A stretch of 64,000 nucleotides of DNA from Candidatus Sulfomarinibacteraceae bacterium. GTDB taxonomy: Bacteria; Acidobacteriota; Thermoanaerobaculia; Thermoanaerobaculales; Sulfomarinibacteraceae. The position numbers and the translations under genes are program-made. Below are positions 28,260 through 52,345 of the stretch, in pieces. The stretch is taken from assembly GCA_963796455.1 (NCBI GenBank), contig CAWCLO010000010.1, positions 64,001 through 128,000 of the forward strand, in the 5' to 3' direction. How positions within the stretch are numbered: position 1 is the stretch's first letter; each line of letters opens with the position of its first letter. A model generated the notes under the pieces. The model ran no database searches. It was not told the DNA's origin and was given only the letters and a program-made list of their open reading frames with translations.

Positions 28260-28457
28260 AGAAACCCTTACCGTTGTGTTATCGGAGCGGCACTTTTTCC
28301 TGAGGATTTCCTGAGTGCAATAACCCAAACTGTTCCTTATGGTTCTGAGACTGCGTCTACCACACATAAGCTCATTTTGGTTGAACGACTTGCCTTCTCA
28401 CCACAATTCCCCCATACTTTTCTCAATTATTCGGCGACACAGGATGGAGGAGAGCTT

Positions 28458-29123
28458 TTGCGGAAGGCGTTTTTCCTCGGTGAGTGGACGGTCGAACCGA
28501 CCCTCGATCGCATCACGCGGGACGGTCAGACCGTCCGGCTGCGTCCCCGGGCAATGGACGTGCTCACCGCCCTCGCGGTGGCCTCAGGTGAACTGGTTTC
28601 GAAGCGAGACCTCATCGACACCGTCTGGCAGACCGAGTTCGTTTCAGAACACGCCCTCACCCAGGTCATCGCCGAGCTCCGGGCGGCGTTCGGCGACAAT
28701 GCCCGCAACCCGAGCTACATCGAAAATATCCCGCGGCGGGGTTATCGATTGATGGCCGCAGTGAACCAGGTCGCCGAAGCGAAGGAATCGCCCCGCGAGG
28801 CCTCGTTGCCTTTCAAGCTCGCGGGCGACGACGGCGACCACCCACTGATTCAGGGGCCCAACATCATCGGCCGCACCACCGACGCCGACATCTGCGTCGA
28901 CAGCACCGAAGTCTCCCGCTGCCACGCCAGGGTCACCGTCCAGGGCACCACCGCCACCATCGAGGATCTCGGCAGTAAAAACGGCACCTACCTCAACGGC
29001 GAACGCCTCGAGCGCCCGGCGCTGCTGACCAACGGCGACGAGATCTGGATCGGCCGCAGCATCGCCCGAATGCGCTTCTTCATCGAGGGCGAACCAACTG
29101 TCACCGAGCACACCGTGTCATGA
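28458..29123 (+). CDS. Transcriptional regulator with CadC/OmpR-type winged helix and FHA domain
   Basis: Winged helix LRAAFGDNARNPSYIENIPRRGYRL. FHA motifs IIGR, VSRCHA, DLGSKNGTYLNG. TTG start after GGAGGAG. Confidence 0.9.
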   Translation: MRKAFFLGEWTVEPTLDRITRDGQTVRLRPRAMDVLTALAVASGELVSKRDLIDTVWQTEFVSEHALTQVIAELRAAFGDNARNPSYIENIPRRGYRLMAAVNQVAEAKESPREASLPFKLAGDDGDHPLIQGPNIIGRTTDADICVDSTEVSRCHARVTVQGTTATIEDLGSKNGTYLNGERLERPALLTNGDEIWIGRSIARMRFFIEGEPTVTEHTVS

Positions 29124-29167
29124 CCTCGCACCGCGGCCCTCCGGACGGACCGCGGCGAGTTTCAACT

Positions 29168-29233
29168 GTGCAGCCGGGACGCCTGGACCACAAAGGCCTC
29201 GAGACAATAATGGCGCGGGCGTCTCGCCCCCAC
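29168..29233. repeat. REP-like family A, copy 1
   Basis: gtgcagccgggacgcctggaccaca...tggcgcgggcgtctcgcccccac. Related to the copies at 46160 and 52346. Confidence 0.7.
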
Positions 29234-29272
29234 ATCCACACAAAACTTCCCAGCCTCGGCGTGTCATCGCGA

Positions 29273-29361
29273 AGCCGCGAAGCGGCGACAGACATTAGCC
29301 TGGGGCGTCAGCCCCAGGTTCCGGGACCAATAAAAGAAACAAGCCCCGGAGGGGCGACAGA
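29273..29361 (+). repeat. REP-like family B, copy 1
   Basis: agccgcgaagcggcgacaga..tagcctggggcgtcagccccagg..agccccggaggggcgacaga. Reverse-complement copy at 57302-57391. Confidence 0.8.
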
Positions 29362-29382
29362 TTCCAGCCCCTGGGTCCCGGC

Positions 29383-32300
29383 ATGACTGACCGCCTCCCG
29401 CCGACCGTCACCGAAGCCGAGAGCGAGACCCTTGATATGCGCGGCGAACGGAAAACATTCCTGGCCGGGGAGATCGTCGGTGATCGATACCAGATCCTCG
29501 CTCTGCTGGGCCGTGGCGGCATGGGTGAGGTGTGGCAGGCCTTCGACCTCAAGCTCCGAGTCGATGTGGCCCTCAAGGCCCTGAGATCAGACATCTTCAA
29601 GAACGAGCGTAGGCGCGAGTCGCTCAGGCAGGAAGTTCGCTCGGCTCGAGATGTCGTCTCCCCCAATGTCTGCCGTCTCTACGATCTCCACGAAATGGAG
29701 GGCCTCGAGCTGGTGTCCATGGAGTTCGTGGACGGACAAACCCTTCTCGATGTGATGTGGGAACGGGCGCCATTGGATCTCCAGGAAGCCCAGGACATCG
29801 CCTCGCAATTCCTCGCGGGGCTTGAGGCCATTCACCATATCGGGCTCGTTCACAGAGACATCAAACCCGAAAACATCATGCTGACCCGGGCGGGTCGGGT
29901 GGTCGTCATGGACTTTGGCATCGCCCGAGAGGAGGCGGAAGGCTCGGGTACCGTCTCAGGAACTGCGGCTTACATGGCCCCAGAGCAAGCGGCCGGTCAG
30001 GCAGTCGACGCGCGCGCCGACATTTACTCAGCGGGCGTCGTGTTGGCCGAAATGGTCAACCCGGAGGGCCTCAAGAACCGCGAAAGCCGCGAGAGTGTCT
30101 GGGAGGCTGTCCGAGCCGAACCGGCCAAGATCCCTGATTCGCCCTGGGCCACCGTCATCACCAAGGCGGTGGCCAAGGACCGTGATCACCGATTCGACTC
30201 TGCTGCCGACCTGACTCGCGCCCTCGAAGACGTCACGCTCCGCGTCATCGGAGCCGACAACCTCCACCCCTACCCTGGCCTCGCCGCCTTCACCGAGGAC
30301 GACGCCGAGTACTTCTTCGGCCGCGAGGCTGAGGTGGAGCAGATGTGGCGCAAGCTCGAGGGGCCGCCGCGGATGCTCGGGCTCGTCGGGCCGTCCGGGG
30401 CAGGAAAGTCCTCGTTCATCGCGGCGGGCCTTGCCGCACATGCCCCAACCGCTTGGGAGATCATCCGATCAACTCCCGGAAACGCAGCGATTTCCTCGCT
30501 CGGCGCCGCGGTCGCCCGCGAGACGGCCGGCGACCCCAACGCGGTCGAACTCCTTCCCCGCTTCGGCAAGGCCGACGTGGCGGTCGATCTCATCTCTCGC
30601 TGGGCCGGGAGGAGCTCGCACTCGTTGTTGATCGTCGATCAGTTCGAGGAGCTGTTCACCCAGAACTCCGTGGATGAACAAATCCGTTTTACCGAAATGC
30701 TAAAGCGGTTCGTGCTCGAAGCCGACGTCCACGTGTTGCTGTCGATGCGAGACGATTTTGCAGTCTCCTGCAATAACCACGAGCCCCTTCGGCCAATCTT
30801 CCACGAACTGACCGTGCTCAACTCTCCGGCCGGGGCCAACCTACGTCGCGCATTGGTCAAACCCGCGCTGGCCTGCAGCTATCGCTTCGAGGACGACGAG
30901 TTGGTAGATGAAATGTTGATCGAGGTGGAGGGTGAACGTGGAGCGCTGCCGTTACTGGCCTTCGCCGCGGCACGGCTCTGGGATATGCGGGACCGAAAAA
31001 CCGGACTCCTCACCCGCCAGACCTACCAGGACATCGGTGGCGTCGGCGGCGCACTCGCACAACATGCCGAGGCAACAATCGATCGCATCGGCATCGAACG
31101 CATTCCGATCGTCCGCGAGCTCTTCCGTAACCTCGTCACCGCCGAGGGCACCCGTGCCCTCCGCGAGTGGGACGAGCTGTTGTCGGTGTTCGAAGAAGCT
31201 CAACGCGAGCCAGCTGCTGAAGTCTTGCGCAAGCTTGTCCAGGCTCGCCTTCTGACTTCGTACGAGGTTCGAGAAGACGAGCACGAACCGCGCCGTCGAG
31301 TCGAAATCATTCACGAATCGTTGCTCGCCACCTGGCCTCGCCTGGTCCGCTGGCAAACTCAGGACGCGGATAGCGTTCAACTGAGGGAACAACTCCGCCA
31401 AGCCGCCAAAACATGGAATGAGCAAGGTCGCAGCGACGATACTCTGTGGACCGGTTCGGCCTACCGGGAGTTCGAATCTTGGCGAGAACGATTCACGGGT
31501 GGTCTATCCAAAGCTGAGGAGGCATTTGCGGCAGCCATGAGAGCGCTGGCCGCGCGCCGACGGAACCGAAGACGATTTGCGGTCGCGACGATCATCGTCG
31601 TTCTGCTTGCAGTCCTGTCGGTGGTCGGTATCTCACGCCAGAAAGCGATTGCTGAAGCCCGCCGAGCCGAGGCATCGAAACTCGTGATGCTCGGAAATTC
31701 GGTGCTTGAGGAGGGCCGTACTCAGGCTCTCGCTTACTCGATTGCCGCCCTTGAACACAATGACTCGAAACCTGCGCGTCACCTGGCCACTAAATCCCTC
31801 TGGGCGGGACCACCCGCGACGTTCTTGCCATTTGAACAGGGGGCATGGTCCATCGATTTCGACACGAACGGGGACCGCATGGCCGTGGGGCATTCGACCG
31901 GGTTACTGAGAGTCTATCCCCGCGACGGGGGGCCGGTGATCACGCTCGATGACTTTGAAGGCCAACATGGTTTGCTGCTCCCAGGATTCTCTGCAGACGG
32001 ACAACTTTTTGTCAGCGGGGCCTCTCGGGCGAATGGCGAGATTCGCATTTGGAATACGGACAGCTGGAAGGTAAATAGGATTCTGCAAACTTCTGACCTC
32101 GTCGAGGTGGGCCAAAACGGATCCCTTGCAGCGTTTGGATTGTTTGAGCCCGGTGGCACCTCCCTGCTGTCCATTTCGGCCACGAGATGGACCGCAAACA
32201 CCACAATTCCAGAACGCAATTTTGTCGTGCACCGCTGGCCGCTCAAAGGTAGCGACCCGCAATGGATCGGTTCAGTCGACGTCACCGGGTCCTTGTTTGC

Positions 32301-33774
32301 CGCTACTCGCGGTCGAGATGCGTTTGTATCGGCGCACAGTGCGAATCTGTTCTTTCATCACGTTGGTCAAACCGGTCTCGGAACTCCAAGGCTGATCTTC
32401 AGTCATCCGGACTCCCTCGATATGGTCCGAAGGCCTGGATTCGATCCGTCGGGTGAACGGTTTGCATTGTGTGATCGTGAGGGCCGGCTGTTTGTTTGGG
32501 ATATTGGGGAAACCAACCGCCCTCGCGTTTTTCACGCACCCAGGGGTGATCCCATGAAAACCTCGTTCAGCCCCGATGGCTCGCGGCTCGCGGTCGCCAT
32601 CGATCCGGTTGGTGGGGCGCTCTGGGATCTCGCAGGCCCGGCTGGCGCCCTACCTCTGACCTTCGACGGGCATGCCAGGTATGGGTTGGAATTCTCACCC
32701 GACGGCCAGTGGCTCATGACCGCCATGGGCCCTCGTTGGCAATTGGCAATGTGGCCGGTGACAAACCAGTACTGGAGAATCCTCGACGGGCACGAGGGCG
32801 CAATCTCCGCCATCGAATTTTCGAATGATGGTTCGGTCCTCTATTCCCAGGGGGCTTCAGATGGGAAGGTGCTAGCGTGGCCCCTTTCAGGAATGGATTT
32901 GGAATCTCCCGAGGTCGTGTATCAGGCTGGGCCACATTTCGGAACCGGCCTTGCCATCGATCCCAAGGGGCGTTTCATAATCGTATCGACCGACGAGGTC
33001 GTGCTCAAGGTGTCTCTGGAAGGCGGATCGATCACAGAATACGACGCCGCGTGGAAGACCGCGCTCGACAACACTGGCAGGTATATTGCTGCCCAACTCA
33101 AGGTCTCGCCGACAATCGTCGTAACCGACTTAGAGTCTGAAGAACGATGGGAACTCTCAGGCCCGGGAGAGGGCCACGCTTCAGAACCATACTTTGATCA
33201 GGAGGGAAGGCTCTTGATAACCAGGGGCGGAGTTCTGAGCCGGTGGAATCCGATCGACGAAAGCACAGAGGTTCTCTTGGAGGACGTGCCATGGGGATTC
33301 CCATATCCGGACGGCCGAATAGTAATCCCCGGTGAAGGAAAACGGTGGCTGATTGATTTGGAAACGGGAAAACGGACGGAGTTTCCTCTCAAAGGTACGG
33401 CGGGTGCCTGGAACGTGAACCCCTCGGGGTCCATCGTCGCCAGGGGCGGCAGAGACGGAACGGTATCGGTTTGGTCTTTTGACGATCAAATTCTGCACGT
33501 GCTTCTTGGCCACAACGGCCCTGTCCGCGAACCGCGAATCTCTCCCGATGGGAAATGGATCGCGACTCACGGCGCCGACCACACAATCCGCCTCTGGCCG
33601 ATGCCCGATCTTTCAAATCGGCCGTTTCATGATCTCCCGATTGACGACCTCCTCTCCAGACTGAAGGCACTGACAAATCTCCGCGCCGTGCCAGACGACG
33701 AAGCTGATTTCGGATACACCATCAGTGCCGACTTCGGCACATATAGCGGCTGGGCGGAGGTACCTGAGTGGTAG
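29383..33774 (+). CDS. Ser/Thr kinase - nSTAND1-type NTPase - TM - WD40 beta-propeller protein, paralog 1
   Basis: Kinase motifs GRGGMGEV, VALK, HRDIKPEN, DFG, APE. NTPase motifs PYPGLAAF..FFGRE, GPSGAGKSS, IVDQFEELFT, GALPLL. Hydrophobic helix after an Arg run, then WD40-like repeats. Confidence 0.9.
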   Translation: MTDRLPPTVTEAESETLDMRGERKTFLAGEIVGDRYQILALLGRGGMGEVWQAFDLKLRVDVALKALRSDIFKNERRRESLRQEVRSARDVVSPNVCRLYDLHEMEGLELVSMEFVDGQTLLDVMWERAPLDLQEAQDIASQFLAGLEAIHHIGLVHRDIKPENIMLTRAGRVVVMDFGIAREEAEGSGTVSGTAAYMAPEQAAGQAVDARADIYSAGVVLAEMVNPEGLKNRESRESVWEAVRAEPAKIPDSPWATVITKAVAKDRDHRFDSAADLTRALEDVTLRVIGADNLHPYPGLAAFTEDDAEYFFGREAEVEQMWRKLEGPPRMLGLVGPSGAGKSSFIAAGLAAHAPTAWEIIRSTPGNAAISSLGAAVARETAGDPNAVELLPRFGKADVAVDLISRWAGRSSHSLLIVDQFEELFTQNSVDEQIRFTEMLKRFVLEADVHVLLSMRDDFAVSCNNHEPLRPIFHELTVLNSPAGANLRRALVKPALACSYRFEDDELVDEMLIEVEGERGALPLLAFAAARLWDMRDRKTGLLTRQTYQDIGGVGGALAQHAEATIDRIGIERIPIVRELFRNLVTAEGTRALREWDELLSVFEEAQREPAAEVLRKLVQARLLTSYEVREDEHEPRRRVEIIHESLLATWPRLVRWQTQDADSVQLREQLRQAAKTWNEQGRSDDTLWTGSAYREFESWRERFTGGLSKAEEAFAAAMRALAARRRNRRRFAVATIIVVLLAVLSVVGISRQKAIAEARRAEASKLVMLGNSVLEEGRTQALAYSIAALEHNDSKPARHLATKSLWAGPPATFLPFEQGAWSIDFDTNGDRMAVGHSTGLLRVYPRDGGPVITLDDFEGQHGLLLPGFSADGQLFVSGASRANGEIRIWNTDSWKVNRILQTSDLVEVGQNGSLAAFGLFEPGGTSLLSISATRWTANTTIPERNFVVHRWPLKGSDPQWIGSVDVTGSLFAATRGRDAFVSAHSANLFFHHVGQTGLGTPRLIFSHPDSLDMVRRPGFDPSGERFALCDREGRLFVWDIGETNRPRVFHAPRGDPMKTSFSPDGSRLAVAIDPVGGALWDLAGPAGALPLTFDGHARYGLEFSPDGQWLMTAMGPRWQLAMWPVTNQYWRILDGHEGAISAIEFSNDGSVLYSQGASDGKVLAWPLSGMDLESPEVVYQAGPHFGTGLAIDPKGRFIIVSTDEVVLKVSLEGGSITEYDAAWKTALDNTGRYIAAQLKVSPTIVVTDLESEERWELSGPGEGHASEPYFDQEGRLLITRGGVLSRWNPIDESTEVLLEDVPWGFPYPDGRIVIPGEGKRWLIDLETGKRTEFPLKGTAGAWNVNPSGSIVARGGRDGTVSVWSFDDQILHVLLGHNGPVREPRISPDGKWIATHGADHTIRLWPMPDLSNRPFHDLPIDDLLSRLKALTNLRAVPDDEADFGYTISADFGTYSGWAEVPEW

Positions 33775-36700
33775 ATCGCACTCATCTTCCGACCACCCTC
33801 ACCGAGGCGGAGAGCGAGACCCTCGATCTCCACGACCAGTGGCGGACCTTCACCGCAGGGGAGATTGTCGGTGAGCGATACCAGATTCTCGCTCTACTCG
33901 GTCGTGGTGGCATGGGTGAGGTTTGGCATGCCTTCGATTTGAAGCTGCGGGTCGATGTGGCGCTGAAGGCTCTTCGCTCAGACATCTTCAAAACCGAGCG
34001 TCGACGCGAATCGCTTCGTCAGGAAGTTCGGGCTGCTCGCGAAGTCGTCTCGCCAAATGTATGTCGCGTGTTTGACCTCCACGAGATGGAAGGCCTCGAG
34101 CTGGTCTCCATGGAGTTCGTCGACGGCCAGACCCTGCTTGATGCGATGCGGGACGGAGCGCCATTCGATCTCCAGGAAGCCCAGGACATCGCATCCCAGT
34201 TCCTCGCCGGGCTCGATGCGATTCACCAGATCGGCCTCGTCCACCGCGACATCAAGCCTGAGAACATCATGCTCACCCGCTCAGGGCGGGTGGTGGTCAT
34301 GGACTTCGGCATCGCCAGAGAAGAGGCCGAGGGCTCAGGAACCGTCTCGGGCACCGCCGCCTACATGGCCCCCGAGCAGGCAGCCGGCCAGGCTGTGGAC
34401 GCCCGCGCGGACATCTATTCGGCCGGCGTAGTCCTCGCCGAAGTCGTGAATCCAGACGGCCTCAAGAACCGGGAGAGCCGAGAGAGCGTCTGGGAGGCCG
34501 TCCGGGCCGAACCAGCAAGGATTCCGGACACGCCGTGGTCCGCAGTCATTACTAAAGCCGTGGCAACGGACCGCGACCATCGATTCGACTCGGCGGCCGA
34601 TCTCACCCGCGCCCTCGAGGAGGTCACCCTCCGCGTCGCCGGCGCCGACAACCTCCACCCCTACCCTGGCCTCGCCGCCTTCACCGAGGACGACGCCGAG
34701 TACTTCTTCGGTCGCGAGGCCGAGGTCGAACAGATGTGGCGAAAGCTCGAGGGACCGGCACGCATGCTCGGAATCATGGGGCCCTCGGGGGCCGGGAAAT
34801 CCTCGTTCATCGCGGCGGGACTCATCTCACATGCGCCAAACACATGGGAGATTCTTCCAGCAACTCCCGGAAACGCAGTTCTTGCCTCGTTCGCCTCGGT
34901 GGTCGCACGCGAAATGGCTGGAGACCCTGACGCCGTCGAGCTTCTCCTTCGCATCGACGAGCCCGATGTGGCGGTCGAGCTCATCTCCCGGTGGGCGGGA
35001 AGGAGCCCTCGCTCGCTGATCGTGGTCGACCAATTCGAGGAGCTCTTCACTCAGAACTCGAGTGAAGATCAACGGCGGTTTGCGGACCTGCTTCGCCGGT
35101 TTGTCATCGAAGCCGATGTCCACGTTCTGCTGTCGATGCGCGACGATTTCGCCGCGGCCTGCAACATTCACGAATCGCTGCGTCCAATCTTCCAGGACCT
35201 CACTGTCCTCGACCCACCAACCGGGCCGAATCTTCGCCGCGCAATCGTCTGGCCGGCGCAGAAGTGCGGCTACCGCTTTGAAGACGACGCATTGGTGGAG
35301 GAGGTTCTGGCCGAGGTGGAGGAAGAGCGGGGGGCCCTGCCATTGATGGCATTCGCCGCGGCCCGTGCCTGGGAGAAACGGGATCGAGAAACGGGCCTGC
35401 TGACTCGCGAGGCTTACCAAGCCATCGGTGGCGTCGGCGGCGCATTGGCCCAACATGCCGAGGCGACTGTGGACCGCATCGGCACCCAACACATCGCCGT
35501 CGTCCGCGAACTCTTCCGAAACCTCGTCACCGCCGAGGGCACCCGCGCCGTTCGCGAGTGGAACGAGTTGTTGTCGGTGTTCGTCGATTCGCAAGACGAA
35601 TCGCCCGAGGAGGTCCTTCGCGCGCTCATCGACGCTCGCCTTCTGACCTCATACGAAGTGCGCGAGGACGAGCACGAACCCACTCGCCGCGTGGAGATCA
35701 TACACGAGAGCCTGCTTGCCAACTGGCCGCGCCTCGTTCGGTGGCAAACCCAGGATCAGGAAGGCGCACAAATCCGCGACGAACTCCGGCAAAGCGCACG
35801 GTCGTGGGACGAGCACGGTCGCCACGACGACCGTCTCTGGACCGGCACCGCCTTCCGGGAGTTCGAGCTTTGGAGGGAGCGATATCCAGGAGGGTTGACC
35901 GAAACTGAAGAATCCTTCGCGAGGGCCACCACCTCCTTCTCGGCCCGCCGTCGTCGGCGCCGCCGAATTCTCGGCGCGGCGGGGGTCGCGATTTTGCTTG
36001 CGGTGCTCGCGATCGTCACTGGTTTTTGGCGGAAAAGCGAAAGACAAACACGAATTGCTGAAGCCCAGAGGCTGCTCGCCCTCGGCCAACTCGAAATGGA
36101 GAGATTCCCCACAGCGGCCCTGGCCTGGGCCAAGGCGAGCCTCAATATCGCCGACACGAAGGAGGGTCGGCTCTTCGCGCTCGAAGCGATCTCAAGGGGT
36201 CCACTGGCGAGAATCAGACAGTTCGATGTGAACAACGAGGGGGTGGCCCACCACGGGGTTTTCAGCCCGAATGGCGAGTGGATTGCGTATATGGGGTACG
36301 ACCTCCTCAAGGTGGATCATCGGTCAGGGGGCGCGATACGAGTCATCGATTCGTTCCCGAACGATCCGAACGCAGCTTTCAGGGATTTCTATCCGGTGTT
36401 TGATCGGGAGTCGTTACGGCTCTCCGTCTGGCGGTACCAATCCGAAAGCCGGTCCGCGGTCGTTCGCACCTTTGGGGTTCCTGACTTTGAGAAGGTCGTT
36501 CAGATCGAGAGACCGCTGGGCAAGGGCTTCTTCGAATACTGGCCGACATCCGCCGGTGTCTATCACCTGAATCGAAATCAAGGTGGGGTCGAAGTCTGGC
36601 ACCTCCCCCACGGTGGCGAATGGCGGCTATTCGACACGGTCGACGGTTTTGACCGCTGGTTTTTTGATCACCTCGGGGAGTGGGCGGTCTTCCGGCGAGG

Positions 36701-38213: not shown

Positions 38214-38462
38214 AGGCTGGTCGCACTGGTCTTCTTCAGGAGTTCACAAAACCCGTCCATAAGAGTATCGAACATATCCCTGACCGTTCCCAGATGACTT
38301 CGGTCACAACCGCATCGATCTTGTTGAATAGATCTTTCACTTCGTGTGGGTGATAAGGAAACGGAGTCGCAATATTTGTTGCTTATTTGCCTTTCAGGTC
38401 TCATATTGAGAAACAAGAAAACCTAGCAAAACGAATCGGCGCGCTCTTCTATCGGGGGGGTC

Positions 38463-41400
38463 ATGAGATATGCGGTCGTGCTGTTGGTCGTGTCGCTGGT
38501 GATAGTGTCTTCTCTTGCCGCCCAGGAAACAACCGGTGGCTTGCAGGGGGCGGTCGCAGACAAAGTCGGAAACCCGATCACGGGGGCGGTTGTCGAGGCA
38601 AAAGGGCCTTTCGGCACGGTCTCGACGAAATCGAACACCGAAGGCGAATATCGATTTCCCAGGTTGGCGCCGGGCAACTATTTGGTTTCAGCATCCTTCG
38701 AGGGCTATCCGACGGTGGAATCCGATCCAACCCGGATTGTTCTCGGTGAATCGGCGACCGTCGACTTCACACTCCGGCGAGAGTCCTTTTCAGAAGAGAT
38801 TTTCGTCTACTCCGACACGGTGACCATCGACTTCACCGAAAACCAGACGGCCACGAACATTCACCAGTATGAGATCGACTACCTGCCTCGGGGCCGCGAC
38901 TATACCGACGTGGTCACCTTTGCCCCCGGCACGGTCCTCAATCACCAGGGCGGCGGAATAATGATCGACGGGGCCTCGGGCCTCGAAAACCGCTACATCA
39001 TCGACGGCCTCGACACGACTGACCCCGTACAGGGTGACCCGGGCGTTCCCTTGCGTGCCGAATTCATAGAGGAGGTGCAGGTCAAATCGGCGGGCTACAT
39101 GGCCGAGTTTGGGGGTTCCACCGGAGGGGTGATTAATGTGGTCTCGCGCACAGGGAGCAATGAGTTTCACGGCTCGCTCTTTGTGGACATCGAGGAAAAC
39201 TCATGGAACGGTGCAGCGCGACAGGAGATCGAGTTCCATCTCAACGATCCCGGTGCCAGCCTGGTGACCTACGACAAGGATGACGAGGTTCGCTACGATC
39301 CCGGGTTTTCGCTGGGCGGCCCGATTCTACGCGGCCGGTTTTGGTTCTTCGCATCGTATCTGCCCGGTCTTCGGACCACAAAAAGGACGATTAACTGGGT
39401 AGACCATCCCCCCGATGTCTATCGCCAAAACTATCGTTTCGATTATGGCAGTTTCAATCTCACGGCCAACGTATCGAGTGCTCTGCTGATCAAGGCCGGG
39501 CTCAACGTATCACCGAATACCCGCGAGGGATCGCTGCCCAATCGAGACGGTCGTTCCGGTCTCCCGGGCCAGGAAAACTGGGCGCCGATTGGATCGAAAT
39601 ACGATCGAGAGACCTACCATCTCTCGGCCGACTGGGTCGTGAATAACGACCTCGTTCTGAGCGGTCGAGGGGGTCTTTACCACACCAACTACGAAACCAC
39701 CGGCATCGAGTCCTACGATGTCATCCATCAGTACTCTATCTACAGCGTCGCGGGTTTTTGTGATCGCCACCCTGTGGTGCCCTCCGGAGCCTGCAACAAC
39801 CCGGGCTGGTACAGCGACCCACTGCGCACGAAATGGTACCGCGACATCTACGAGCGGAAAGGTGCGGCGCTGGATGGCACCTGGTTCTTCCGTGGCGGCG
39901 GCCAGCACTCGCTCAAGGCCGGATATCAGACAGAGGAGATCTCCAACGACAAAAGGGCCGCGTGGAACGCCGAACGCGTCCTGTATTACTGGGACCGCGC
40001 CTATACAACCACGACCGGTGACAGCGTCCGCGGAGAGTTCGGTGTTTTTCTCCTCAACAATCCGTCGACCCTGGGAGACGTGGCCAGCCGGAATCAGGCG
40101 GCTTTCGTCCAGGATGCCTGGCAGGTGCGATCGAATGTCACACTCAACATCGGGGTTCGAATCGAAAAGGAGGAAATCCCAAACTACGGCGCCACCGGAC
40201 CCGACCCTGCGATCAGCTTCAATTGGGGGGACAAGGTAGCACCGCGTCTGGGATTAGCCTGGGACATCAGAAACGACGCGAAATGGAAGCTCTACGGCAG
40301 TTGGGGCAAGTATTACGATGTGACGAAGTACGCGGTCTCAGGTCTGCTCGGATCCGGGAGGAATGTCGGGTATTACTACACCTTTGATCATCCTGAAATC
40401 TTTCTCAACGAGACTCCGAGCTGCCGGACCGGCAACAACACGATTTTCGAGCGGCCCGACTGCCCCGCGGGCACCTTTATCGAAGCGATTAACTGGTTGC
40501 CAAACTCCGCGGATCCGGAGGTGTGGGAGGAACTCGGATTTCCCCTCATCGAACCCAATCTCAAACCGATGGAGACCTGGGAAGCTCAAATCGGGGTCGA
40601 CCACCAACTGACGATGAACATCCAGATCGGGGCCCGCTTCGTACACAAAGAGATCGTGCGGACGATCGAGGACGTCGGGATTCTCCTGCCCGGTATCGGC
40701 GAGATCTATGTCATCGGAAACCCCGGCGAAGGAATCACGATCGACGTCAGCGACCTGCCCTATGCCAAACCCGTGCGGGAATATGACGCCCTCGAACTCG
40801 TTCTGGACAAGCGTTTTTCCGACAATTGGTCTTTGCGCGCTTATTTCACTTTGAGCCGGTTGTGGGGCAACTACTCGGGCCTCGCCAACTCGGACGAGGT
40901 CAACGTTGTCGGAAACCCTTTGAACCCCATCGGTTCAGGAGGAAGAAGATCACCCAACGTCAGTCGTCTTTATGATCTTCCCGGTTCAATGTACGACCAA
41001 AACGGTGATTTCGTCTACGGACGTTTGGCGACCGACCGCACCCACCAATTAGGGGCCCAGTTCCTCTACAGCATCCCTTTCGGGCTCAACGTCGGCGTCA
41101 ACCAGTACATCGGCAGCGGCACCCTCATTTCCACCAAAGGATCCATCCTCGGCGGCGATTTCTACCCCTACGGTCGCGGGGACCTGGGTGAAACGCCGTG
41201 GATAACTCAGACCGATCTCTCGCTCTTCTACACCCTGACTCTTGGACGGGGGCTGAACTTCACCGTCGGACTGACGGTTCTGAATCTGTTCGATGAGGAC
41301 ACGCCAACAAGGAAGTGGCCGCACGTGCAAACACAAAATCTTGGAGTCACGAACGAAGACTTTCTCACCGGGTTCAATTACGCCGAGGAGTTGGCGGCGC

Positions 41401-41492
41401 TTGGCCCGGCGGCCCTCGACTCGCGCTTCGGCATGTGGGATACCTTTCAACTCCCGCGGGAACTCCGCCTGACACTCAAGTTCGAGTTTTAG
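38463..41492 (+). CDS. TonB-dependent receptor (Oar-like, N-terminal carboxypeptidase-regulatory-like domain)
   Basis: Signal peptide, YRFPRLAPGNY, plug ENRYIIDG..EEVQVKSAGYMAEFGGSTGGVINVV, APRLGLAWD, terminal F. Confidence 0.92.
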   Translation: MRYAVVLLVVSLVIVSSLAAQETTGGLQGAVADKVGNPITGAVVEAKGPFGTVSTKSNTEGEYRFPRLAPGNYLVSASFEGYPTVESDPTRIVLGESATVDFTLRRESFSEEIFVYSDTVTIDFTENQTATNIHQYEIDYLPRGRDYTDVVTFAPGTVLNHQGGGIMIDGASGLENRYIIDGLDTTDPVQGDPGVPLRAEFIEEVQVKSAGYMAEFGGSTGGVINVVSRTGSNEFHGSLFVDIEENSWNGAARQEIEFHLNDPGASLVTYDKDDEVRYDPGFSLGGPILRGRFWFFASYLPGLRTTKRTINWVDHPPDVYRQNYRFDYGSFNLTANVSSALLIKAGLNVSPNTREGSLPNRDGRSGLPGQENWAPIGSKYDRETYHLSADWVVNNDLVLSGRGGLYHTNYETTGIESYDVIHQYSIYSVAGFCDRHPVVPSGACNNPGWYSDPLRTKWYRDIYERKGAALDGTWFFRGGGQHSLKAGYQTEEISNDKRAAWNAERVLYYWDRAYTTTTGDSVRGEFGVFLLNNPSTLGDVASRNQAAFVQDAWQVRSNVTLNIGVRIEKEEIPNYGATGPDPAISFNWGDKVAPRLGLAWDIRNDAKWKLYGSWGKYYDVTKYAVSGLLGSGRNVGYYYTFDHPEIFLNETPSCRTGNNTIFERPDCPAGTFIEAINWLPNSADPEVWEELGFPLIEPNLKPMETWEAQIGVDHQLTMNIQIGARFVHKEIVRTIEDVGILLPGIGEIYVIGNPGEGITIDVSDLPYAKPVREYDALELVLDKRFSDNWSLRAYFTLSRLWGNYSGLANSDEVNVVGNPLNPIGSGGRRSPNVSRLYDLPGSMYDQNGDFVYGRLATDRTHQLGAQFLYSIPFGLNVGVNQYIGSGTLISTKGSILGGDFYPYGRGDLGETPWITQTDLSLFYTLTLGRGLNFTVGLTVLNLFDEDTPTRKWPHVQTQNLGVTNEDFLTGFNYAEELAALGPAALDSRFGMWDTFQLPRELRLTLKFEF

Positions 41493-41548
41493 GAAGTGGA
41501 GGCAGCAATCGAGAAACCGGACCCGAATCGCCGGCGGCATTCCGATGA

Positions 41549-44500
41549 ATGACTGACCCCGACCTCCCCCCAACCCGCACTGAAGCAGAGAGCGAGACGC
41601 TCGATCTGAGGGACGAGCGGAGGACATTCAACGCAGGCCAGGTCGTCGGTGACCGCTACCAGATCATCGCCCTGCTGGGGCGCGGTGGGATGGGTGAGGT
41701 GTGGCACGCCTTCGATCTCAAGCTTCGCGTCGACGTGGCGCTCAAGGCCCTGCGTTCTGACATCTTCAAGTCGGAGAAGCGTCGCGAATCGCTTCGGCAG
41801 GAAGTACGCGCTGCCCGCGAGGTCGTTTCGCCAAATGTCTGCCGGGTCTTTGATCTTCACGAACTCGAAGGCCTTGAACTGGTCTCCATGGAATTCGTGG
41901 ACGGCCAGACCCTGCTCGAGGTTCTTCGCGAGCACGGTCCCCTCGACCTCCAGGAAGCCCAGGATCTGGCCTCGCAGATTCTGGCTGGGCTTGATGCCAT
42001 CCACCAGATCGGTCTTGTCCACCGCGACATCAAACCCGAGAACATCATGCTTACTCGAGCAGGGCGCGTCGTGGTCATGGACTTCGGCATCGCCCGCGAA
42101 GAACACGAAGGATCGGGCACCGTATCCGGCACCGCCGCCTACATGGCTCCCGAGCAGGCCGCCGGCCAGGCCGTGGACGCCCGTGCCGACATCTACTCCG
42201 CCGGAATCGTCCTAGCCGAGATGGTCAACCCCACTGGCCTCAAGGACCGGGAAAGTCGTGAAAGCGTCTGGGAAGCCGTGCGCGCCGAACCAATCACAAT
42301 CCCCGACTCGCCCTGGACCGCGGTCATCACCAAAGCGGTCGCCAAGGATCGCGACCTACGGTTCGACTCGGCCAACGAACTCAGCCGTGCTCTCGAAGAG
42401 GTGACCCTCCGCGTCGTCGGCGCCGACGATCTCCACCCCTACCCCGGTCTCGCCTCCTTCACCGAAAAAGACGCCGAGTACTTCTTCGGCCGTGAGGCCG
42501 AGGTCGAACAGATGTGGCGGACGCTGGAGGGACCACCTCGTTTGCTTGGATTGGTTGGTCCCTCCGGCGCCGGAAAGACCTCCTTCCTGAGGGCGGGCCT
42601 TCTTCCAAGCGCTACCTCGACATGGGTCGTGGTCCGCTGCAAACCCGGAACCTCTCCCTTTGTGTCCCTGGGCCAGGCGCTGGCGCCCGAGATCGCCAGC
42701 GACGCTGAAGCCATGCTCCTTTTGCCCAGGGTTCAAGAGCCCGGCACTGCTGTCCAGCTTGTCAATCGATGGTCGCGATCAGCGCCCAACTCGGTACTGA
42801 TCGTCGATCAGTTCGAAGAGCTCTTCACTCTCAACGCTGAGGAGGTGCAGGACCGTTTTTCGGGTTTCCTCTCGCGTTTACCTCTCGAGGCAAACGTTTT
42901 CGTGCTGCTATCGATGCGTGATGACTTTTTGATGCTGTGCCACCAGATTGAACGGCTTCGTCCCATCGTGCATGGTCTTACCCTTCTGGACCCGCCAGCT
43001 GGAGCAAATCTCCGTCGAGCCCTCGTCCACCCTGCGAACAAATGCGGCTATCGATTCGAGTGTGACGAACTCGTGGAGGACATGTTGGCTGAGGTCGAGG
43101 GCGAACGCGGCGCTCTTCCGCTTCTGGCCTTTGCGGCTGCCCGCCTTTGGGAAAAACGAGATCGTGAAACGGGTCTCCTTACACGCGTCGCATACAACGA
43201 TATCGGCGGGGTCGCCGGCGCCCTGGCCCGCCACGCTGAGGCGACTATCGATCGCATCGGCACCAGCCACATCACCATTGTCCGCGAGATATTCCGAAAT
43301 CTCGTCACCGCCGGGGGAACTCGCGCGGTCCGCGAATGGGATGAACTCCTCTCCATATTCAGCAATTCGCACGGCGAATCACCCGAGGAGGTGCTTCGTC
43401 AGCTGATCGACGCACGCCTGCTGACGTCCTACGAAATCCGTGAAGAGGACAAGGCATCGACGAGGATGGTTGAGATTATCCACGAGTCCCTCCTGGCCAA
43501 TTGGCCCCGGCTCGTTCGTTGGAAAACACAGGACCAGGACGGCGCGCAGATCCGCGATGAGCTTCGCCAGGCGGCGCGCTCATGGGACGAACACGACCGG
43601 CAAAATGATCGACTCTGGACCGGCACTGCATTTCGGGAGTACCAGCTCTGGCGCGAGCGATACCCCGGTGGGCTAACCGAGTTGGAGGAGGAGTTTGCCC
43701 GAGCCATGACCGCCCACGCCAGACGACGTAGTCGACGAAGGCGAACCGCGGTGGCCGCGCTCATTGTCTTGCTCCTCGGCGGTCTGGCGGTTGTCGGGTC
43801 GTTCTGGCGCCAAGCCGAGCACGCTGCGCGCCGCGCGGAGGCAGCTGAGCTGGTCGCCCTCGGCCAGCTGGAGCTCGAAGGGCACCCGACAGCCTCAGTG
43901 GCCCATGCCATCGCCAGCCTCGAGCTTTCGGACTCTCCGGCCGCGAGAATGTTGGCCCTCGAGGCGTTGTGGCAGGGCCCGACCGCGATCATCATCAACG
44001 ACGAATGGACTCTTCAAACAGTGTTCACGTCGGACGGAAACTGGTTGATTCAGTCGCGTTCGGCTACTGGAACCACTCCGCTGCGTGTAATCGGTGCCGA
44101 TGGCTCGAGCACGGTGCTGGAGCACACTCAAGGAGGCCACGCCGCCGTTGAAGAGGCGGGGGTTGAAAGCGGATACTTCGGGCTGCTGGGGTGGGACAAA
44201 AACAATACTCAGGATGTTCGATCCCTATGGTCTGCACCAGAGAAGATGCTGCTCGCAGAGGCACGGTACGACGGGAGGGGGTTGCTGGGAGGCGTCTCGA
44301 TTCGGTCGGACGATCGCCGAATGCTGATGGTCGTCCACGGGGAAGACGGCCGCCTTGCTGTCGATTCCCTCGGCTTCGACGGTGATCACACGCGTCTCGG
44401 GACCATCGATCTCGACCTCGATCCCGATGAGGACACATGGCTGGTCAGAATGAACAACACAGGCCGGCAGATCGCGGTGGCGACCGGCCAGAAAATTTAT

Positions 44501-46135
44501 ACGGTCGAGATCGGTGATCACGGGCCGTCCGAACCCCGGTTCCTGGGTCGGCAAGAGACTCCACTCATAAAAATTGACATGGATGAGCGGGGCCGCTTTG
44601 TCGCGACTGCCGACGAAAACTGCAGGATACGGCTCTGGTACCTCGATGGTTCTACGGCGCCGGTTGTGATCCAGGGTCCTGCGGAAGGGTGTTCTCTCCA
44701 CACTCCGTCGGACGCAGGGGATTATCTGGTGTCATCCGGCCGTATGAATTCCACCAGTGACCGTGAGTACTGGGTCTGGTCGCTTGAATCCAGGCAACCG
44801 CGGCTGTTGCGACGCTTCGATGTTGGTGGGAGAGGAATAACTGGATACTGGCTGAGCGAGAATTTCTGGGTCAGGAGCGGGCCGGAGCAGCAGGTCCGTC
44901 TATGGCCGATCACGGCGCCGCCGGATGCAGAACCGATCTCTTTGCGCCGAGGCGAGGTTGGCCGATTTGGATATGCGAGGTTCCATCCCAACGAAAAATG
45001 GCTGGTCGTACCGGACGAATCCGGGCTTTCCGTCTGGCCCTTGGCTCGAACCTACCCGACAGTTTTTCGGGCCCACACAGGTCACGTGAATGGGCTTGTG
45101 TTCGGGCCCGAGGGACATTGGCTGGCATCGTCATCAAACGATGGCACGGTCAGGATCTGGCCGCTCGAAGGCGAGCCCCCTCCACGGGGGTGGACCGTCC
45201 TCGATTCTCCTGACCAGCGGGAAATGATGCTCGGGCTGGCGAGATCACCTGACGGCAAGCTACTTTTCGTCGGGAACAGTCGAGATGGCGGCCACCTGCT
45301 GAATCTCGGTGACGAGATTTCCACCACTCTTGTTGACGCTCCAGCCAACCAGATGGGAGGCGAAACCCGTCCCTACGGAGAAACAGCCTTTAGCATCGAC
45401 GGGCGATTTGTGGCTGCGGCATCGGAAGACCTCGAGGATGCCCTTCGAAAGATAGGCGTATGGGACGTCGCTACGGGTGAGCAGATCAATGTGCTGGCGG
45501 AGGGCGAGGTAAATGGCTGGGGCACCCCCCGGTTTACCGAGGACGGTCGTCTCATGGCTTTGGGCCGTTCGGGGTTGCGCTGGTGGGATGTGAAAACCGG
45601 CGAAACCGAAATGGTGTTCGGCGGGGTCTTCCAAAGGTACGCGACGAGCCAGGATCGGCGCCGTCTGCTCCTCCTCGAGGCGTCCACTCACGTTGACCCT
45701 GGGCGCGCCATCTTTCTTGATCTCGATACCGGAGTCGTGACGCCTCTCGAAACTCATGGCAATCGCATCCAATCCGTAGCATTGAATCCGTCCGGTTCTC
45801 TTGCGGTCACCGGCGACAGGGACGGTATCGTTAGGGTTGGACCTGTGACAGGCGAAGAGCCTCGAATTCTTCTCGGTCACGAAAACAGTGTCGATCAGAT
45901 CACTGTGGATCCAATGGGCAGGTTGATCGCCTCTGCGGGAAAGGACCATTCAGTCCGCCTCTGGCCCATGCCCGATCTCACCAAGCCCCCGCTTCACACC
46001 CTGCCGCGCGAGGAACTGATCGCCAAGCTCAAGACCCTCACAAATCTCCGGGCGGCTCGTGACCCCGAATCTGCCACAGGCTGGACCCTGACCCACGCCC
46101 CCTTCCCCGGCTGGGAGACGGTGCCGACATGGTAA
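41549..46135 (+). CDS. Ser/Thr kinase - nSTAND1-type NTPase - TM - WD40 protein, paralog 3
   Basis: Same architecture, Walker A GPSGAGKTS, shared tail LKTLTNLR...W. Confidence 0.9.
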   Translation: MTDPDLPPTRTEAESETLDLRDERRTFNAGQVVGDRYQIIALLGRGGMGEVWHAFDLKLRVDVALKALRSDIFKSEKRRESLRQEVRAAREVVSPNVCRVFDLHELEGLELVSMEFVDGQTLLEVLREHGPLDLQEAQDLASQILAGLDAIHQIGLVHRDIKPENIMLTRAGRVVVMDFGIAREEHEGSGTVSGTAAYMAPEQAAGQAVDARADIYSAGIVLAEMVNPTGLKDRESRESVWEAVRAEPITIPDSPWTAVITKAVAKDRDLRFDSANELSRALEEVTLRVVGADDLHPYPGLASFTEKDAEYFFGREAEVEQMWRTLEGPPRLLGLVGPSGAGKTSFLRAGLLPSATSTWVVVRCKPGTSPFVSLGQALAPEIASDAEAMLLLPRVQEPGTAVQLVNRWSRSAPNSVLIVDQFEELFTLNAEEVQDRFSGFLSRLPLEANVFVLLSMRDDFLMLCHQIERLRPIVHGLTLLDPPAGANLRRALVHPANKCGYRFECDELVEDMLAEVEGERGALPLLAFAAARLWEKRDRETGLLTRVAYNDIGGVAGALARHAEATIDRIGTSHITIVREIFRNLVTAGGTRAVREWDELLSIFSNSHGESPEEVLRQLIDARLLTSYEIREEDKASTRMVEIIHESLLANWPRLVRWKTQDQDGAQIRDELRQAARSWDEHDRQNDRLWTGTAFREYQLWRERYPGGLTELEEEFARAMTAHARRRSRRRRTAVAALIVLLLGGLAVVGSFWRQAEHAARRAEAAELVALGQLELEGHPTASVAHAIASLELSDSPAARMLALEALWQGPTAIIINDEWTLQTVFTSDGNWLIQSRSATGTTPLRVIGADGSSTVLEHTQGGHAAVEEAGVESGYFGLLGWDKNNTQDVRSLWSAPEKMLLAEARYDGRGLLGGVSIRSDDRRMLMVVHGEDGRLAVDSLGFDGDHTRLGTIDLDLDPDEDTWLVRMNNTGRQIAVATGQKIYTVEIGDHGPSEPRFLGRQETPLIKIDMDERGRFVATADENCRIRLWYLDGSTAPVVIQGPAEGCSLHTPSDAGDYLVSSGRMNSTSDREYWVWSLESRQPRLLRRFDVGGRGITGYWLSENFWVRSGPEQQVRLWPITAPPDAEPISLRRGEVGRFGYARFHPNEKWLVVPDESGLSVWPLARTYPTVFRAHTGHVNGLVFGPEGHWLASSSNDGTVRIWPLEGEPPPRGWTVLDSPDQREMMLGLARSPDGKLLFVGNSRDGGHLLNLGDEISTTLVDAPANQMGGETRPYGETAFSIDGRFVAAASEDLEDALRKIGVWDVATGEQINVLAEGEVNGWGTPRFTEDGRLMALGRSGLRWWDVKTGETEMVFGGVFQRYATSQDRRRLLLLEASTHVDPGRAIFLDLDTGVVTPLETHGNRIQSVALNPSGSLAVTGDRDGIVRVGPVTGEEPRILLGHENSVDQITVDPMGRLIASAGKDHSVRLWPMPDLTKPPLHTLPREELIAKLKTLTNLRAARDPESATGWTLTHAPFPGWETVPTW

Positions 46136-46159
46136 CGGCCGTTCTTTACCAACGGTAAT

Positions 46160-46224
46160 GTGCAGGCGGGACGCCTGCACCACAAAGACACGGGCTCAAG
46201 TGTGGTGCGGGCGTCTCTCCTGCA
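46160..46224. repeat. REP-like family A, copy 2
   Basis: gtgcaggcgggacgcctgcaccaca...tgtggtgcgggcgtctctcctgca, an inverted pair. Confidence 0.75.
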
Positions 46225-46252
46225 TTTTGAGCGTTCCGTGGAACGACGTATT

Positions 46253-46402
46253 TCAGGAGTCCTGTGGACCCTCACCATCGTGCACTCTGTCGGGTGTGAT
46301 CGGCAGGAAAGGGTTTATCTCCTGGACCGAACCGTAGCGCCGGCCGTGGTTGAGGTCCTCGGTGTAGAGGATGGTGGCGCCGAGGCGTTTGGTGGCTGCG
46401 AG
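46253..46402 (-). pseudogene. C-terminal remnant of a PIN-domain (VapC-like) toxin
   Basis: Manual translation LAATKRLGATILYTEDLNHGRRYGSVQEINPF...stop resembles the PIN C-terminal pattern LYSEDLQHG...NPF. No 5' part is present. Confidence 0.7.
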
Positions 46403-46411
46403 GCTCGAAGA

Positions 46412-47526
46412 TCAGACGAGCGTTTGAAGGAAGTTGAGCGCCGGGGTCAAACGGAGTCCGTCTGGTGTGACGACGTCCTTCGTCCCGGACAACGCGAGCT
46501 GCCAGGCCGGGCAATCTGGAAAGCGTCGTTTGAGGTATCTCAGGCTGCGATCCGCCTTCGAGTCCGCAAGCTTGCATTCGACCATGAGGATCGGCAGATT
46601 CCTCTCGACAACCACAAAGTCGACCTCGCGGTCCTCCGAATCACGGAAGTACCTCAGTTCGAGATCGCGGCCTTGGGTGTTGTTCCGGAAATGGACCCAC
46701 TTGAGCAGGTGTGAGGCAACCAGATTCTCGAATCGCGCGGCCGGGTCGGGCACCAGGCTCCAGTCGAAGTGATAGTGCTTGCGGGCCTTCTTGACCGCGC
46801 GGATGCCAGGGGCGCCGAACGGTGGCAGGCGAAATACGGCGTACAGGCGTTCCAGAATGCAAATCCAATTCTCGACGGTCTTGTGGCTCAGCTGAAGATC
46901 CTCGCGCAGCGCGTTGACCGAAAGCGGCGCGCCGACGAGATCGGGGAGCCTGAGGACGAGCAGCTCCAGATTGCCGAGGTCCTGGACCCGCTCGAGGCTG
47001 GTGAGTTCCTCTCGAATGAGGAGGTTCCGGTACTCCCTCGACCACCGTCTCGCTTCGACCTCCGATCCCTCGAAGAACGGTTCGGGAAAGCCCCCGAGGG
47101 TCAGGAGCTGCTGAAGATCATCGGCCGATACGAGACCGAGTTCGGCGACCGAGAGAGGGTGGAGCTGGAGCATGTGGTACCGGCCCTGGAGGGAATCGCC
47201 GGAAAAACGATAGAGATCGAGGCGGGCGCTCCCTGTTACGAGAATCTGCTGCCCTTTCGGCGGCCGTCGTAAATCCCCTTCAGGTAGTTTCGCCAGGAAC
47301 GGTACTTGTGGATCTCGTCGAATATCCAGATCGGGCTCACCGGGAGCTCTCTCTTGAGGATCTGCTCGCGGTCCTCGGCCACGTCCCAGTTGAGATATCC
47401 GCCGACCGTGCCCGGCAGGCTCATTGCCAGGGTGGTCTTCCCGACCTGGCGCGGTCCAGCGACGAAGACCATCTTGCGCTTCAGGTCGCGTACCACCTGC
47501 GGCTTCAGATACCGATCAAACTGCAT
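46412..47526 (-). pseudogene. AAA_14/DUF4143-type ATP-binding protein with a frameshift near 47253 (possibly a sequence error)
   Basis: GPRQVGKTT and FDEIHK lie in ORF 47236-47526. ILVTGSARLD..DSLQGR, GGFPEP and REVDFVV..ECK continue in the next frame. Confidence 0.85.
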
Positions 47527-50637: not shown

Positions 50638-50742
50638 GTGTTGAGTTTTGAGTTATGAGTTTTGATTTGCACCCACCCTCATGCAAGGCTGGAAGCGCCC
50701 AATGGCCGATACCGAACTCCGAATTCCGAATTCCGAATTCGG
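50637..50742. repeat. Heptamer tracts (TGAGTTT)n ... (CCGAATT)n
   Basis: gagtgttgagttttgagttatgagttttga ... ccgaactccgaattccgaattccgaattcgg. Confidence 0.75.
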
Positions 50743-50755
50743 TTCAGGTACGGCG

Positions 50756-52047: not shown

Positions 52048-52345
52048 CCACAGCCCATCGGCCCGCGATTTTGAGCACCGAGCCTCGCCACTAGCGACCA
52101 CGAGTAAGGCAGTGGCGAGTCGGAACTTGCTGGCAACGATGAGGTTTCAGGAGGCCACCGGAATGCACCCGGGGCCACTGTGTCAATTGAAAATCCCCGG
52201 TGTTCGACTCCGTGTCTCGGTGCCCTCTCGTGGCTTTGGCTATTTTCGGCACCGGTTCCTGGGCTCGCGCGCCAGGCATAAACTGCCGCCCCCTCCGAGC
52301 TGAAGGCGTTTGATCGTCATCCCGAGCGAGTGCAGCATGGAGGAT

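Follow-up and report, generated by a model that had tools for sequence, protein, structure and literature searches.

Proteins in which an nSTAND1 module is followed by a transmembrane (TM) segment and a beta-propeller are common in bacteria, filling hundreds of table rows in the work of Kaur et al. 2021, who named nSTAND1 (PMC8195603; here and below, statements about a cited paper refer to the sections of it that were consulted). Figure 2 source data 1 of that work lists the architecture Pkinase+nSTAND1+TM+BetaPropeller (e.g., NDJ62327.1), and HTH+Pkinase+nSTAND1+TM+BetaPropeller is listed there for Chloroflexi. Likewise, a 2026 STAND survey describes bacterial Apaf-1-like proteins (PMC12803255), and Doré et al. 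predicted periplasmic sensors for some STAND proteins. Kinases that act through FHA domains are also known: PknH phosphorylates the winged helix-turn-helix (wHTH)-FHA factor EmbR via its FHA domain (PMC4601284), and an autophosphorylated N-terminal Thr of PknG recruits GarA, which has a Thr switch of its own (PMC8546545). Here we describe a locus at positions 28458 to 46135 of a 64,000-nucleotide stretch of DNA (the window) from a Candidatus Sulfomarinibacteraceae bacterium, in which three kinase-nSTAND1-TM-propeller receptors (K1 to K3) are encoded together with a wHTH-FHA regulator (R) and a TonB-dependent transporter (TBDT; T). We lean toward a wiring in which the receptors signal through phosphothreonine to R, and R to the TBDT gene, with uptake as the purpose.

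The five genes were called as open reading frames (ORFs) that all lie on the plus strand, in the order R (28458-29123), K1 (29383-33774), K2 (33768-38213, its start overlapping the K1 stop), T (38463-41492), and K3 (41549-46135, beginning 56 bp past T). An earlier inspection of the letters alone (the sequence-only reading) had reported five co-oriented genes with intact kinase and Walker motifs, poly-Arg, a hydrophobic helix, and repeats, and all of these are present where it placed them. It had also asked whether the combination is undescribed. The protein architecture was already catalogued in the Kaur et al. source data, with a domain order identical to that of K1-K3 and with DNA-binding domains fused to the chassis there too; these proteins stand in table rows among predicted conflict systems, and the main-text passages treat nSTAND1 together with FGS sensors (PMC8195603). 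That source data has 42 "kinase+nSTAND1" places, of which 23 were examined, and 12 supplementary files were text-searched: "FHA+nSTAND1," "wHTH+nSTAND1," and "Thermoanaerobac" occur 0 times in the source-data file, and none of the 12 files contains "TonB." A partner regulator, an operator, or a transporter target did not turn up in the files searched. A kinase-STAND/wHTH-FHA/TBDT circuit was not found described in the literature searched either, which took in few subscription journals. The module is real, conserved, and made of known parts, but its assembly, operator, and transporter target appear undescribed.

K1, K2, and K3 share one domain set: a Hanks kinase, nSTAND1, a TM helix, and a double beta-propeller. 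Each has a Pkinase match (E ~1e-41), a match to nSTAND1 (PF20703; 313-332 bits at a cut-off of 27.1, spanning model positions 1-378 of 379), and WD40 matches. The kinase motifs GRGGMG, ALK, HRDIKPEN, DFG, and APE are found in each protein, as are Walker A (GPSGAGK[ST]) and Walker B (VDQFEELF), followed by poly-Arg and a propeller part of about 650-700 residues. Walker A is kept in 120/120 homologs, and the kinase is intact (HRDxKPEN) in all 87 full-length homologs. No solved nSTAND1 relative was found by sequence search; a model of the STAND module alone (pLDDT 81) resembles Cdc6/Orc1, archaeal ATPases, Apaf-1, CED-4, and NLRP7 at TM-scores of 0.33-0.45, in keeping with intact Walker motifs that precede helical and winged-helix domains. 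The whole 5.0-Mb genome holds 51 kinase matches and four strong nSTAND1 proteins, K1-K3 among them, the fourth having a wHTH where K1-K3 have the kinase. Because three of the four strong nSTAND1 proteins and one of the two wHTH-FHA genes in the genome lie here, the grouping is not due to chance. The closest named full-length relatives (66-67% identity) come from Ca. Sulfomarinibacteraceae records, and one homolog carries the label Holophagae; on this basis, the genome most probably belongs to Thermoanaerobaculia (Acidobacteriota).

R (221 aa, with a TTG start after GGAGGAG) matches Trans_reg_C (E 3e-16) and FHA (E 1e-20), that is, an OmpR-type wHTH joined to an FHA domain whose phosphothreonine-binding residues are present (GR, SRxH, and NGT motifs). 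Its top NCBIfam match is CadC, with a score under the cut-off of that model, and its best PDB matches are the CadC and ToxR DNA-binding domains and the FHA domain of GarA. On sequence grounds, R is a member of the CadC/ToxR-type wHTH-FHA proteins. ToxR and CadC have the same wHTH type, bind in tandem, and control an outer-membrane protein gene, but they have no STAND, kinase, or FHA, and R is soluble; it is the sister wHTH-STAND-TM-propeller proteins discussed below that are ToxR-like in topology (PMC10629549). Another likeness is found in PknH-EmbR and PknK-VirS of Mycobacterium tuberculosis, where an OmpR-type wHTH-FHA factor is under the control of a Hanks kinase that acts via the FHA domain of the factor, and PknK, like the K proteins, joins a kinase to STAND and acts on a transcription factor. 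However, EmbR has a BTAD domain, PknK is soluble, and PknH and PknK have no STAND between kinase and membrane, no variable-sensor arrays, and no TBDT target (PMC4601284). The Pfam scan gave no BTAD match between the wHTH and FHA domains of R. By analogy, R would work in an EmbR-like manner, but it is not a SARP.

The target of R is suggested by a promoter element. We trained a 32-bp matrix on the upstream regions of nine R orthologs, with the window left out. Its best match in the 5.0-Mb genome is the predicted operator upstream of T (38268-38299, plus strand; score 25.1), with a -10-like hexamer 102 bp further on, at 38402. The predicted operator before R itself (28277-28308, plus strand) has three 11-bp units in tandem, is followed after 104 bp by a -10-like hexamer at 28413, and scores 14.2; a score of 14 is reached by 0.09% of 4311 background upstream windows. 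The -10-like hexamers were taken from alignments, and a sigma-70/terminator scan gave nothing informative, with no plus-strand terminator in the intergenic gaps. Among co-oriented array TBDTs, 10 of 12 score 24-36, and in each of these the -10-like hexamer follows at 102-103 bp; an additional one with a held-out site located later brings the total to 11/13. The TBDT of genome G022, whose start was not located, was left out of this count. By contrast, none of 16 control TBDTs reaches a score of 10, and six of these lie near STAND genes of other type or orientation. Comparing R-type with TBDT-type upstream regions gives a likeness of 62% inside the element versus 29-33% in the flank, spacer, and promoter, although the TBDTs themselves come from several subfamilies.

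Boxes of the PhoB type have an 11-bp spacing. Tandem binding has been described for the wHTH domains of ToxR (PMC10629549). R likely binds the 11-bp triple repeat shared by the R and T upstream regions, and the shared element points to the TBDT as the likely target of R, with transcription as the output. The sequence-only reading had listed a TBDT as a member of the locus; the gene is there, and is best read as a regulated output rather than merely as a neighbor or an input. An exact pattern, which was derived from these same sites and is informative only on absence elsewhere, matches eight times in 10 genomes, always in arrays, and the regulon therefore looks local. With one mismatch allowed there are 22 matches, 3 of them in arrays and 11 representing one repeated sequence in genome G008. 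A simple TCCTGA-N5-TCCTGA pattern was set aside in favor of the matrix, having given 103 matches that mostly belong to a dispersed REP-like repeat family. That family is separate from a second set of REP-like palindromic repeats at 29167-29364 and 46159-46224, which has further copies across the genome; the sequence of the gap after K3 has 53 blastn matches in the genome.

Upstream of six R orthologs (loci L036, L050, L054, L056, L073, and L077), an ATG stands about 10 bases past the -10-like hexamer, which suggests leaderless mRNAs. The region upstream of R in the window is without that ATG and has the TTG start with a Shine-Dalgarno-like sequence instead.

Beyond this genome, 24 from the genus and 16 from a second family were assessed for conservation; they are kin rather than independent samples. 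These relatives are often frameshifted, and loci were therefore mapped by tblastn, with intact ORFs alone used in the tree (42) and in the set for substitution rates (25). A close R ortholog is present in 10 genus genomes, and in 10/10 a kinase-type receptor lies within 2 kb downstream on the same strand (in three of these, the kinase start alone is visible). Arrays hold one to six receptors, and several share one site between isochorismatase and baeRF10 genes. Among 33 loci tallied, 17 are of the kinase type, 15 are of a wHTH type described below, and 1 is untyped. A TBDT lies within 5 kb at 15/17 kinase-type loci (both misses at contig ends) versus 3/15 wHTH-type loci, and an FHA gene within the same distance at 8/17 versus 1/15; for comparison, such a TBDT is found within 5 kb for 1 of 48 other kinases of the genome, with 4.4% expected. 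The neighborhood check proposed by the sequence-only reading thus came out in its favor, with the genes co-occurring elsewhere.

A short threonine motif would connect the kinases to R. The C-terminal tail of R, which ends P-T-V-T-E-H-T-V-S, carries P-T-V-T-E as a candidate phosphothreonine site (29094-29108, plus strand), and K1, which begins M-T-D-R-L-P-P-T-V-T-E, carries the same letters as a candidate FHA docking site (29401-29415, plus strand). The corresponding N-tail versions are T-L-T-E in K2 and T-R-T-E in K3. T-x-T-E occurs in 10/10 R-ortholog tails (window included) versus 7/1789 long ORF ends taken as background, and distant wHTH-FHA paralogs mostly carry other Thr-rich tails. Among the N-tails of kinase homologs, T-x-T-E is found in 54/88 and TE[GA] in 72/88, compared with 0/20 other kinases of the genome. 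PknG-GarA/OdhI offers a parallel, where Thr sites at the kinase N-terminus anchor an FHA substrate, which in turn bears a Thr tail that can be phosphorylated. However, GarA acts as a metabolic inhibitor and has its ETTS at the N-terminus, whereas in R, a DNA-binding protein, T-x-T-E is C-terminal (PMC8546545).

The kinases of K1-K3 are also under tight constraint, differing at 5-8% of nonsynonymous sites with synonymous sites near saturation (pN 0.05-0.08 at pS 0.61-0.66), a pattern to be expected where every kinase has to fit the same partner. The near saturation of synonymous sites rules out recent gene conversion among K1-K3. Finally, the 15 wHTH-type loci encode wHTH-STAND-TM-propeller proteins, in which the same wHTH type is fused directly to STAND. 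On a quick tree of 42 STAND domains, in which one row (L066) is mislabeled through a contig end and three rows are unlabeled, the wHTH versus kinase label changes twice. The presence of a wHTH in place of the kinase in these sister receptors points to transcription as the output.

Taken together, gene order, the Thr motif, the promoter element, and the wHTH-for-kinase swaps support, at the level of sequence, the kinase/STAND cascade read out by an FHA regulator that the sequence-only reading had proposed. In the circuit we envisage, a ligand, most likely a protein or peptide, would bind one of many different double propellers. Binding would cluster the receptors, with STAND nucleotide exchange and oligomerization setting a threshold, and the near-identical kinases would then phosphorylate the T-x-T-E motif in each other's N-tails, as judged from STAND and receptor-kinase biology. 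By the precedents of PknG/GarA and PknH/EmbR, R would dock at the N-tail via its FHA domain and be phosphorylated on its own T-x-T-E tail. R would then act on the element seen upstream of both the R and TBDT genes and turn on both of them; more transporter would bring in more ligand, producing a positive loop in which many receptors converge on one regulator.

As for the purpose, proteins and cyanophycin are predicted substrates of Ca. Sulfomarinibacter (PMC8528874), and several other Oar-type TBDT genes in the genome adjoin peptidase genes. These features, together with the secreted zincin-like partner of the wHTH-type receptors described below, slightly favor a peptide-sensing uptake loop, and we put the wiring with an uptake-type purpose at a little above an even chance. 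The arrangement recalls the Bacteroides hybrid two-component system (HTCS)-SusC loci (PMC3243724) and BguR (10.64898/2026.01.10.698779), which also have a periplasmic double seven-bladed propeller (700-900 aa), a membrane span, and control of TBDT-locus transcription. However, in those systems the sensor is N-terminal, signaling uses His-Asp chemistry or no phosphorylation, the output domain is AraC or LuxR, the locus includes SusD and glycan enzymes, and sensor and locus are paired. No SusD, glycan enzyme, or His-Asp sensor was found in the five genes or recurring in the flanks (100 proteins scanned, with part of the 163 flanking ORFs among them), and the Sus-like HTCS resemblance is one of analogy only.

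T has a hydrophobic N-terminus, CarboxypepD_reg (PF13620), OMP_b-brl_4, and a TonB barrel (PF00593), with the plug PF07715 matched only in part of its homologs. The CarboxypepD_reg N-terminal extension defines the Oar subclass of TBDTs (PMC6434023), to which T belongs. The array TBDTs fall into several subfamilies that are about 25-30% alike, and a single fixed TBDT ortholog was ruled out; T has three ~60%-identity paralogs far from STAND genes. The TBDT could additionally serve as a signal inlet, its periplasmic CarboxypepD_reg extension touching the propeller as FecA contacts FecR. A TBDT does stay adjacent in members of the phylum that have neither R nor the operator, and in the AlphaFold model of K1 the propellers are carried by a helical stalk past the membrane segment. 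We nonetheless regard an inlet role as improbable: the Pfam scan gave no match to the STN signaling domain in T, the Oar extension has been called distinct from the signaling STN (PMC6434023), and receptors outnumber TBDTs without fixed pairing, with TBDT subfamilies exchanged.

The uptake circuit places the propellers outside the cytoplasm. Each K protein has one hydrophobic 19-mer at residues ~732-752 with a Kyte-Doolittle (KD) value of 2.5-3.0, the next best window reaching 1.1-1.4. The predicted TM helix after poly-Arg is encoded at 31576-31638 in K1, where it falls inside a 65-residue model helix, and at the same relative place in K2 (about 35967-36029) and K3 (about 43748-43810), all on the plus strand. 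The sequence-only reading hinged on this helix being transmembrane, and the signs in the sequence agree with one TM segment: a helix with KD of at least 2.0 is found in the same place in 118/120 homologs, an uncharged run of 20-22 residues in 112/120, and no second TM candidate in any of the 120 (second-best KD at most 1.86). Lys plus Arg content is higher before the helix than after it in 120/120 homologs (means 7.1 versus 3.8). By the positive-inside rule, the basic flank of a TM helix stays cytoplasmic. The kinase and STAND would therefore lie inside and the propellers outside, and the K1-K3 propellers likely face the periplasm. The part after the TM segment is Cys-poor (0.34 per 100) and exported-like in 88% of 93 proteins, by a composition score that is confounded by propeller make-up.

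Sensors of the Apaf-1/Avs type contact the NTPase directly. The K proteins share with Apaf-1 and with Avs/NLR-like STANDs the layout of effector, STAND, and repeat sensor, including the WD40 double propeller of Apaf-1 (PMC12803255), but in those proteins the sensors are cytoplasmic, whereas here a membrane is predicted between sensor and STAND and the output is apparently transcription, not death. The helix might instead anchor the protein to the membrane or belong to a helical bundle, with cytoplasmic propellers clamping STAND as in Apaf-1. In a Foldseek search with the model of K1 residues 290-1463 (pLDDT 83), Apaf-1 ranked first among double-propeller proteins, but with a TM-score of only 0.2, and the model runs as a single straight 65-residue helix through the TM segment. 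Basic residues also follow the helix (a mean of 3.8 Lys plus Arg), an even-Cys bias is missing, and nSTAND1+BetaPropeller occurs in the source data 499 times in text without TM versus 461 with TM (PMC8195603). Against this, the uncharged run is variable (0/21 columns at least 90% conserved) between conserved flanks, no second TM segment returns the chain, and the linked genes encode exported proteins. Cytoplasmic propellers seem quite unlikely to us.

Several observations weigh against the uptake circuit. Two array TBDTs lack the element, and genome G006 has operator-bearing TBDTs at three loci with no close R in the assembly (best 50%). In some relatives, opposite-strand genes lie between R and the first kinase, making co-transcription uncertain. 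Propeller Cys counts (39 even, 46 odd) give no disulfide sign, compared with even counts in 109/113 TBDTs, although an exported control set is equally unbiased. At greater distance, a strong STAND-TM match was found in 12/350 other sampled genomes of the phylum (G186 counted in this tally only), and 17 loci from 11 distant Acidobacteriota genomes have a wHTH-FHA gene or operator in 0/17, so that the R branch is lineage-limited; a TBDT within the fetched stretch in 10/17, by contrast, speaks for the receptor-TBDT pairing, which is the older one. The flanks examined hold no conserved catabolic enzyme at kinase-type loci, and many receptors accompany one or two transporters, unlike 1:1 nutrient loci. 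In addition, family searches in sets of five genomes place 6/21 DUF4143, 11/36 PIN, and 3/15 AbiEii genes within ~10 kb of arrays.

These last points also bear on an immune purpose for the same wiring, in which periplasmic propellers would sense phage, predator, or competitor proteins and R would mount a nonlethal defense via an Oar-type channel (export, decoy, or surface change). The receptors combine a constant kinase and STAND with highly diverse sensors in tandem arrays of up to six copies. Pairwise identities among K1-K3 are 86-90% for the kinases, 66-75% for the STAND modules, and 28-33% for the propellers (90%, 75%, and 28% for K1 versus K2), and the median pairwise identities in the homolog set are 82/71/30%. 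At 60% identity, the propellers of the homologs separate into 84 clusters, and no sampled homolog matches the K1 or K2 propeller at more than 41%. Many receptors per regulator, no recurring catabolic enzyme, and the clustering of DUF4143, PIN, and AbiEii genes at arrays would fit defense as well, and the nSTAND1+TM+propeller chassis elsewhere bears caspase or TIR ("CASPASE+nSTAND1+TM" has 103 text occurrences; PMC8195603). Moreover, Oar is reported to export a protease in Myxococcus.

However, the receptors carry no fused toxic effector, no such effector bears the operator, and nearby toxin-antitoxin genes are without it, although the kinase itself, as a STAND-coupled effector, could be toxic. 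Of the 20 cargo genes near arrays, 19 are on the opposite strand, and their positions differ between genomes, such that they look like later insertions. The best 25 PADLOC matches per K protein are kinase models, with no Avs or bNACHT model among them, and fall on the generic kinase domain. In the closest pairs, propeller pN (0.27) is below pS (0.54), these being whole-region rather than site-level values. We consider an immune purpose rather unlikely, if well short of negligible.

One extension of the immune idea deserves equally tentative mention. The K proteins might be cell-surface pattern receptors built on an NLR chassis, with the membrane between STAND and sensor and with dozens of propellers feeding one phosphothreonine channel to produce a nonlethal change of the outer membrane. 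If true, bacteria would have a counterpart to receptor-kinase immunity, and sensing outside the cytoplasm would extend to the many nSTAND1-TM-propeller proteins with caspase or TIR domains. We found no work in the literature searched on what nSTAND1-TM-propeller proteins sense or on STAND switching across a membrane. With its 32-bp element, its two Thr motifs, and a regulator that is small and soluble, the locus provides a readout concrete enough for a reporter assay in a laboratory strain, and the ligand, the topology, and the need for ATP-driven oligomerization thereby become testable. The locus also hints at what some of the numerous Oar-type transporters in Acidobacteriota may do.

The wHTH-type loci have their own features. 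One-component wHTH-nSTAND1-TM-propeller receptors are encoded at L183:7382-11458 (minus strand; G000 C1) and in arrays of up to five tandem copies at L038/L039, L033, and L053. Of the 15 wHTH-type loci, 13 adjoin (within 5 kb) a gene for a small secreted HExxH protein, compared with 0/17 kinase-type loci. This family of ~200-aa proteins has a signal-peptide-like stretch, HEALHHAG (HExxH), four conserved Cys residues, and no Pfam match, and it may comprise zincin-like metallopeptidases, the family assignment being a lead only. It has two copies in this genome (L183:11560-12213, minus strand; L185:8960-9562, plus strand) and 14 loci in relatives, with the gene directly upstream of wHTH-STAND-TM-propeller or wHTH-FHA genes. 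A stretch upstream of the peptidase gene at wHTH-type loci, unlike the R element, shows an 11-bp autocorrelation peak (0.42 versus 0.23-0.32; 10/14 regions anchored). More distant wHTH-FHA paralogs (L190, L191, L192, L193, L195, and L197) stand beside non-STAND kinases, other wHTH proteins, and TBDTs, so that wHTH-FHA plus receptor plus TBDT looks like a wider theme in the lineage.

Downstream of the receptors, a DUF4143 gene with a PADLOC PDC-S01 match (46412-47173, minus strand) converges on K3. It is the only DUF4143 match in the genome and is treated as accessory cargo outside the circuit; beyond it lies a short remnant that we take to resemble a PIN C-terminus. PIN, AbiEii, HepT-like, and AAA_14-DUF4143 genes stand tail-to-tail after array genes in the window (46136-47173) and at L035, L036, L047, L054, and L056. 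An integron cassette array was ruled out, with an attC-like site at 0/22 cargo gene ends.

Two other neighbors in the window are of separate interest. In a cell-division cluster, a 764-aa ORF (4341-6632, minus strand) has glycosyltransferase 28 (MurG-type) domains only from residue 411, and its N-terminal part, without a Pfam match, may be a fused or overlapping gene. At 48884-52303, genes for a TusA-DsrE fusion, a class-V aminotransferase, and an Se/S-carrier plus AIRS protein, the last presumably SelD-like, stand in a row that likely encodes a sulfur/selenium relay.

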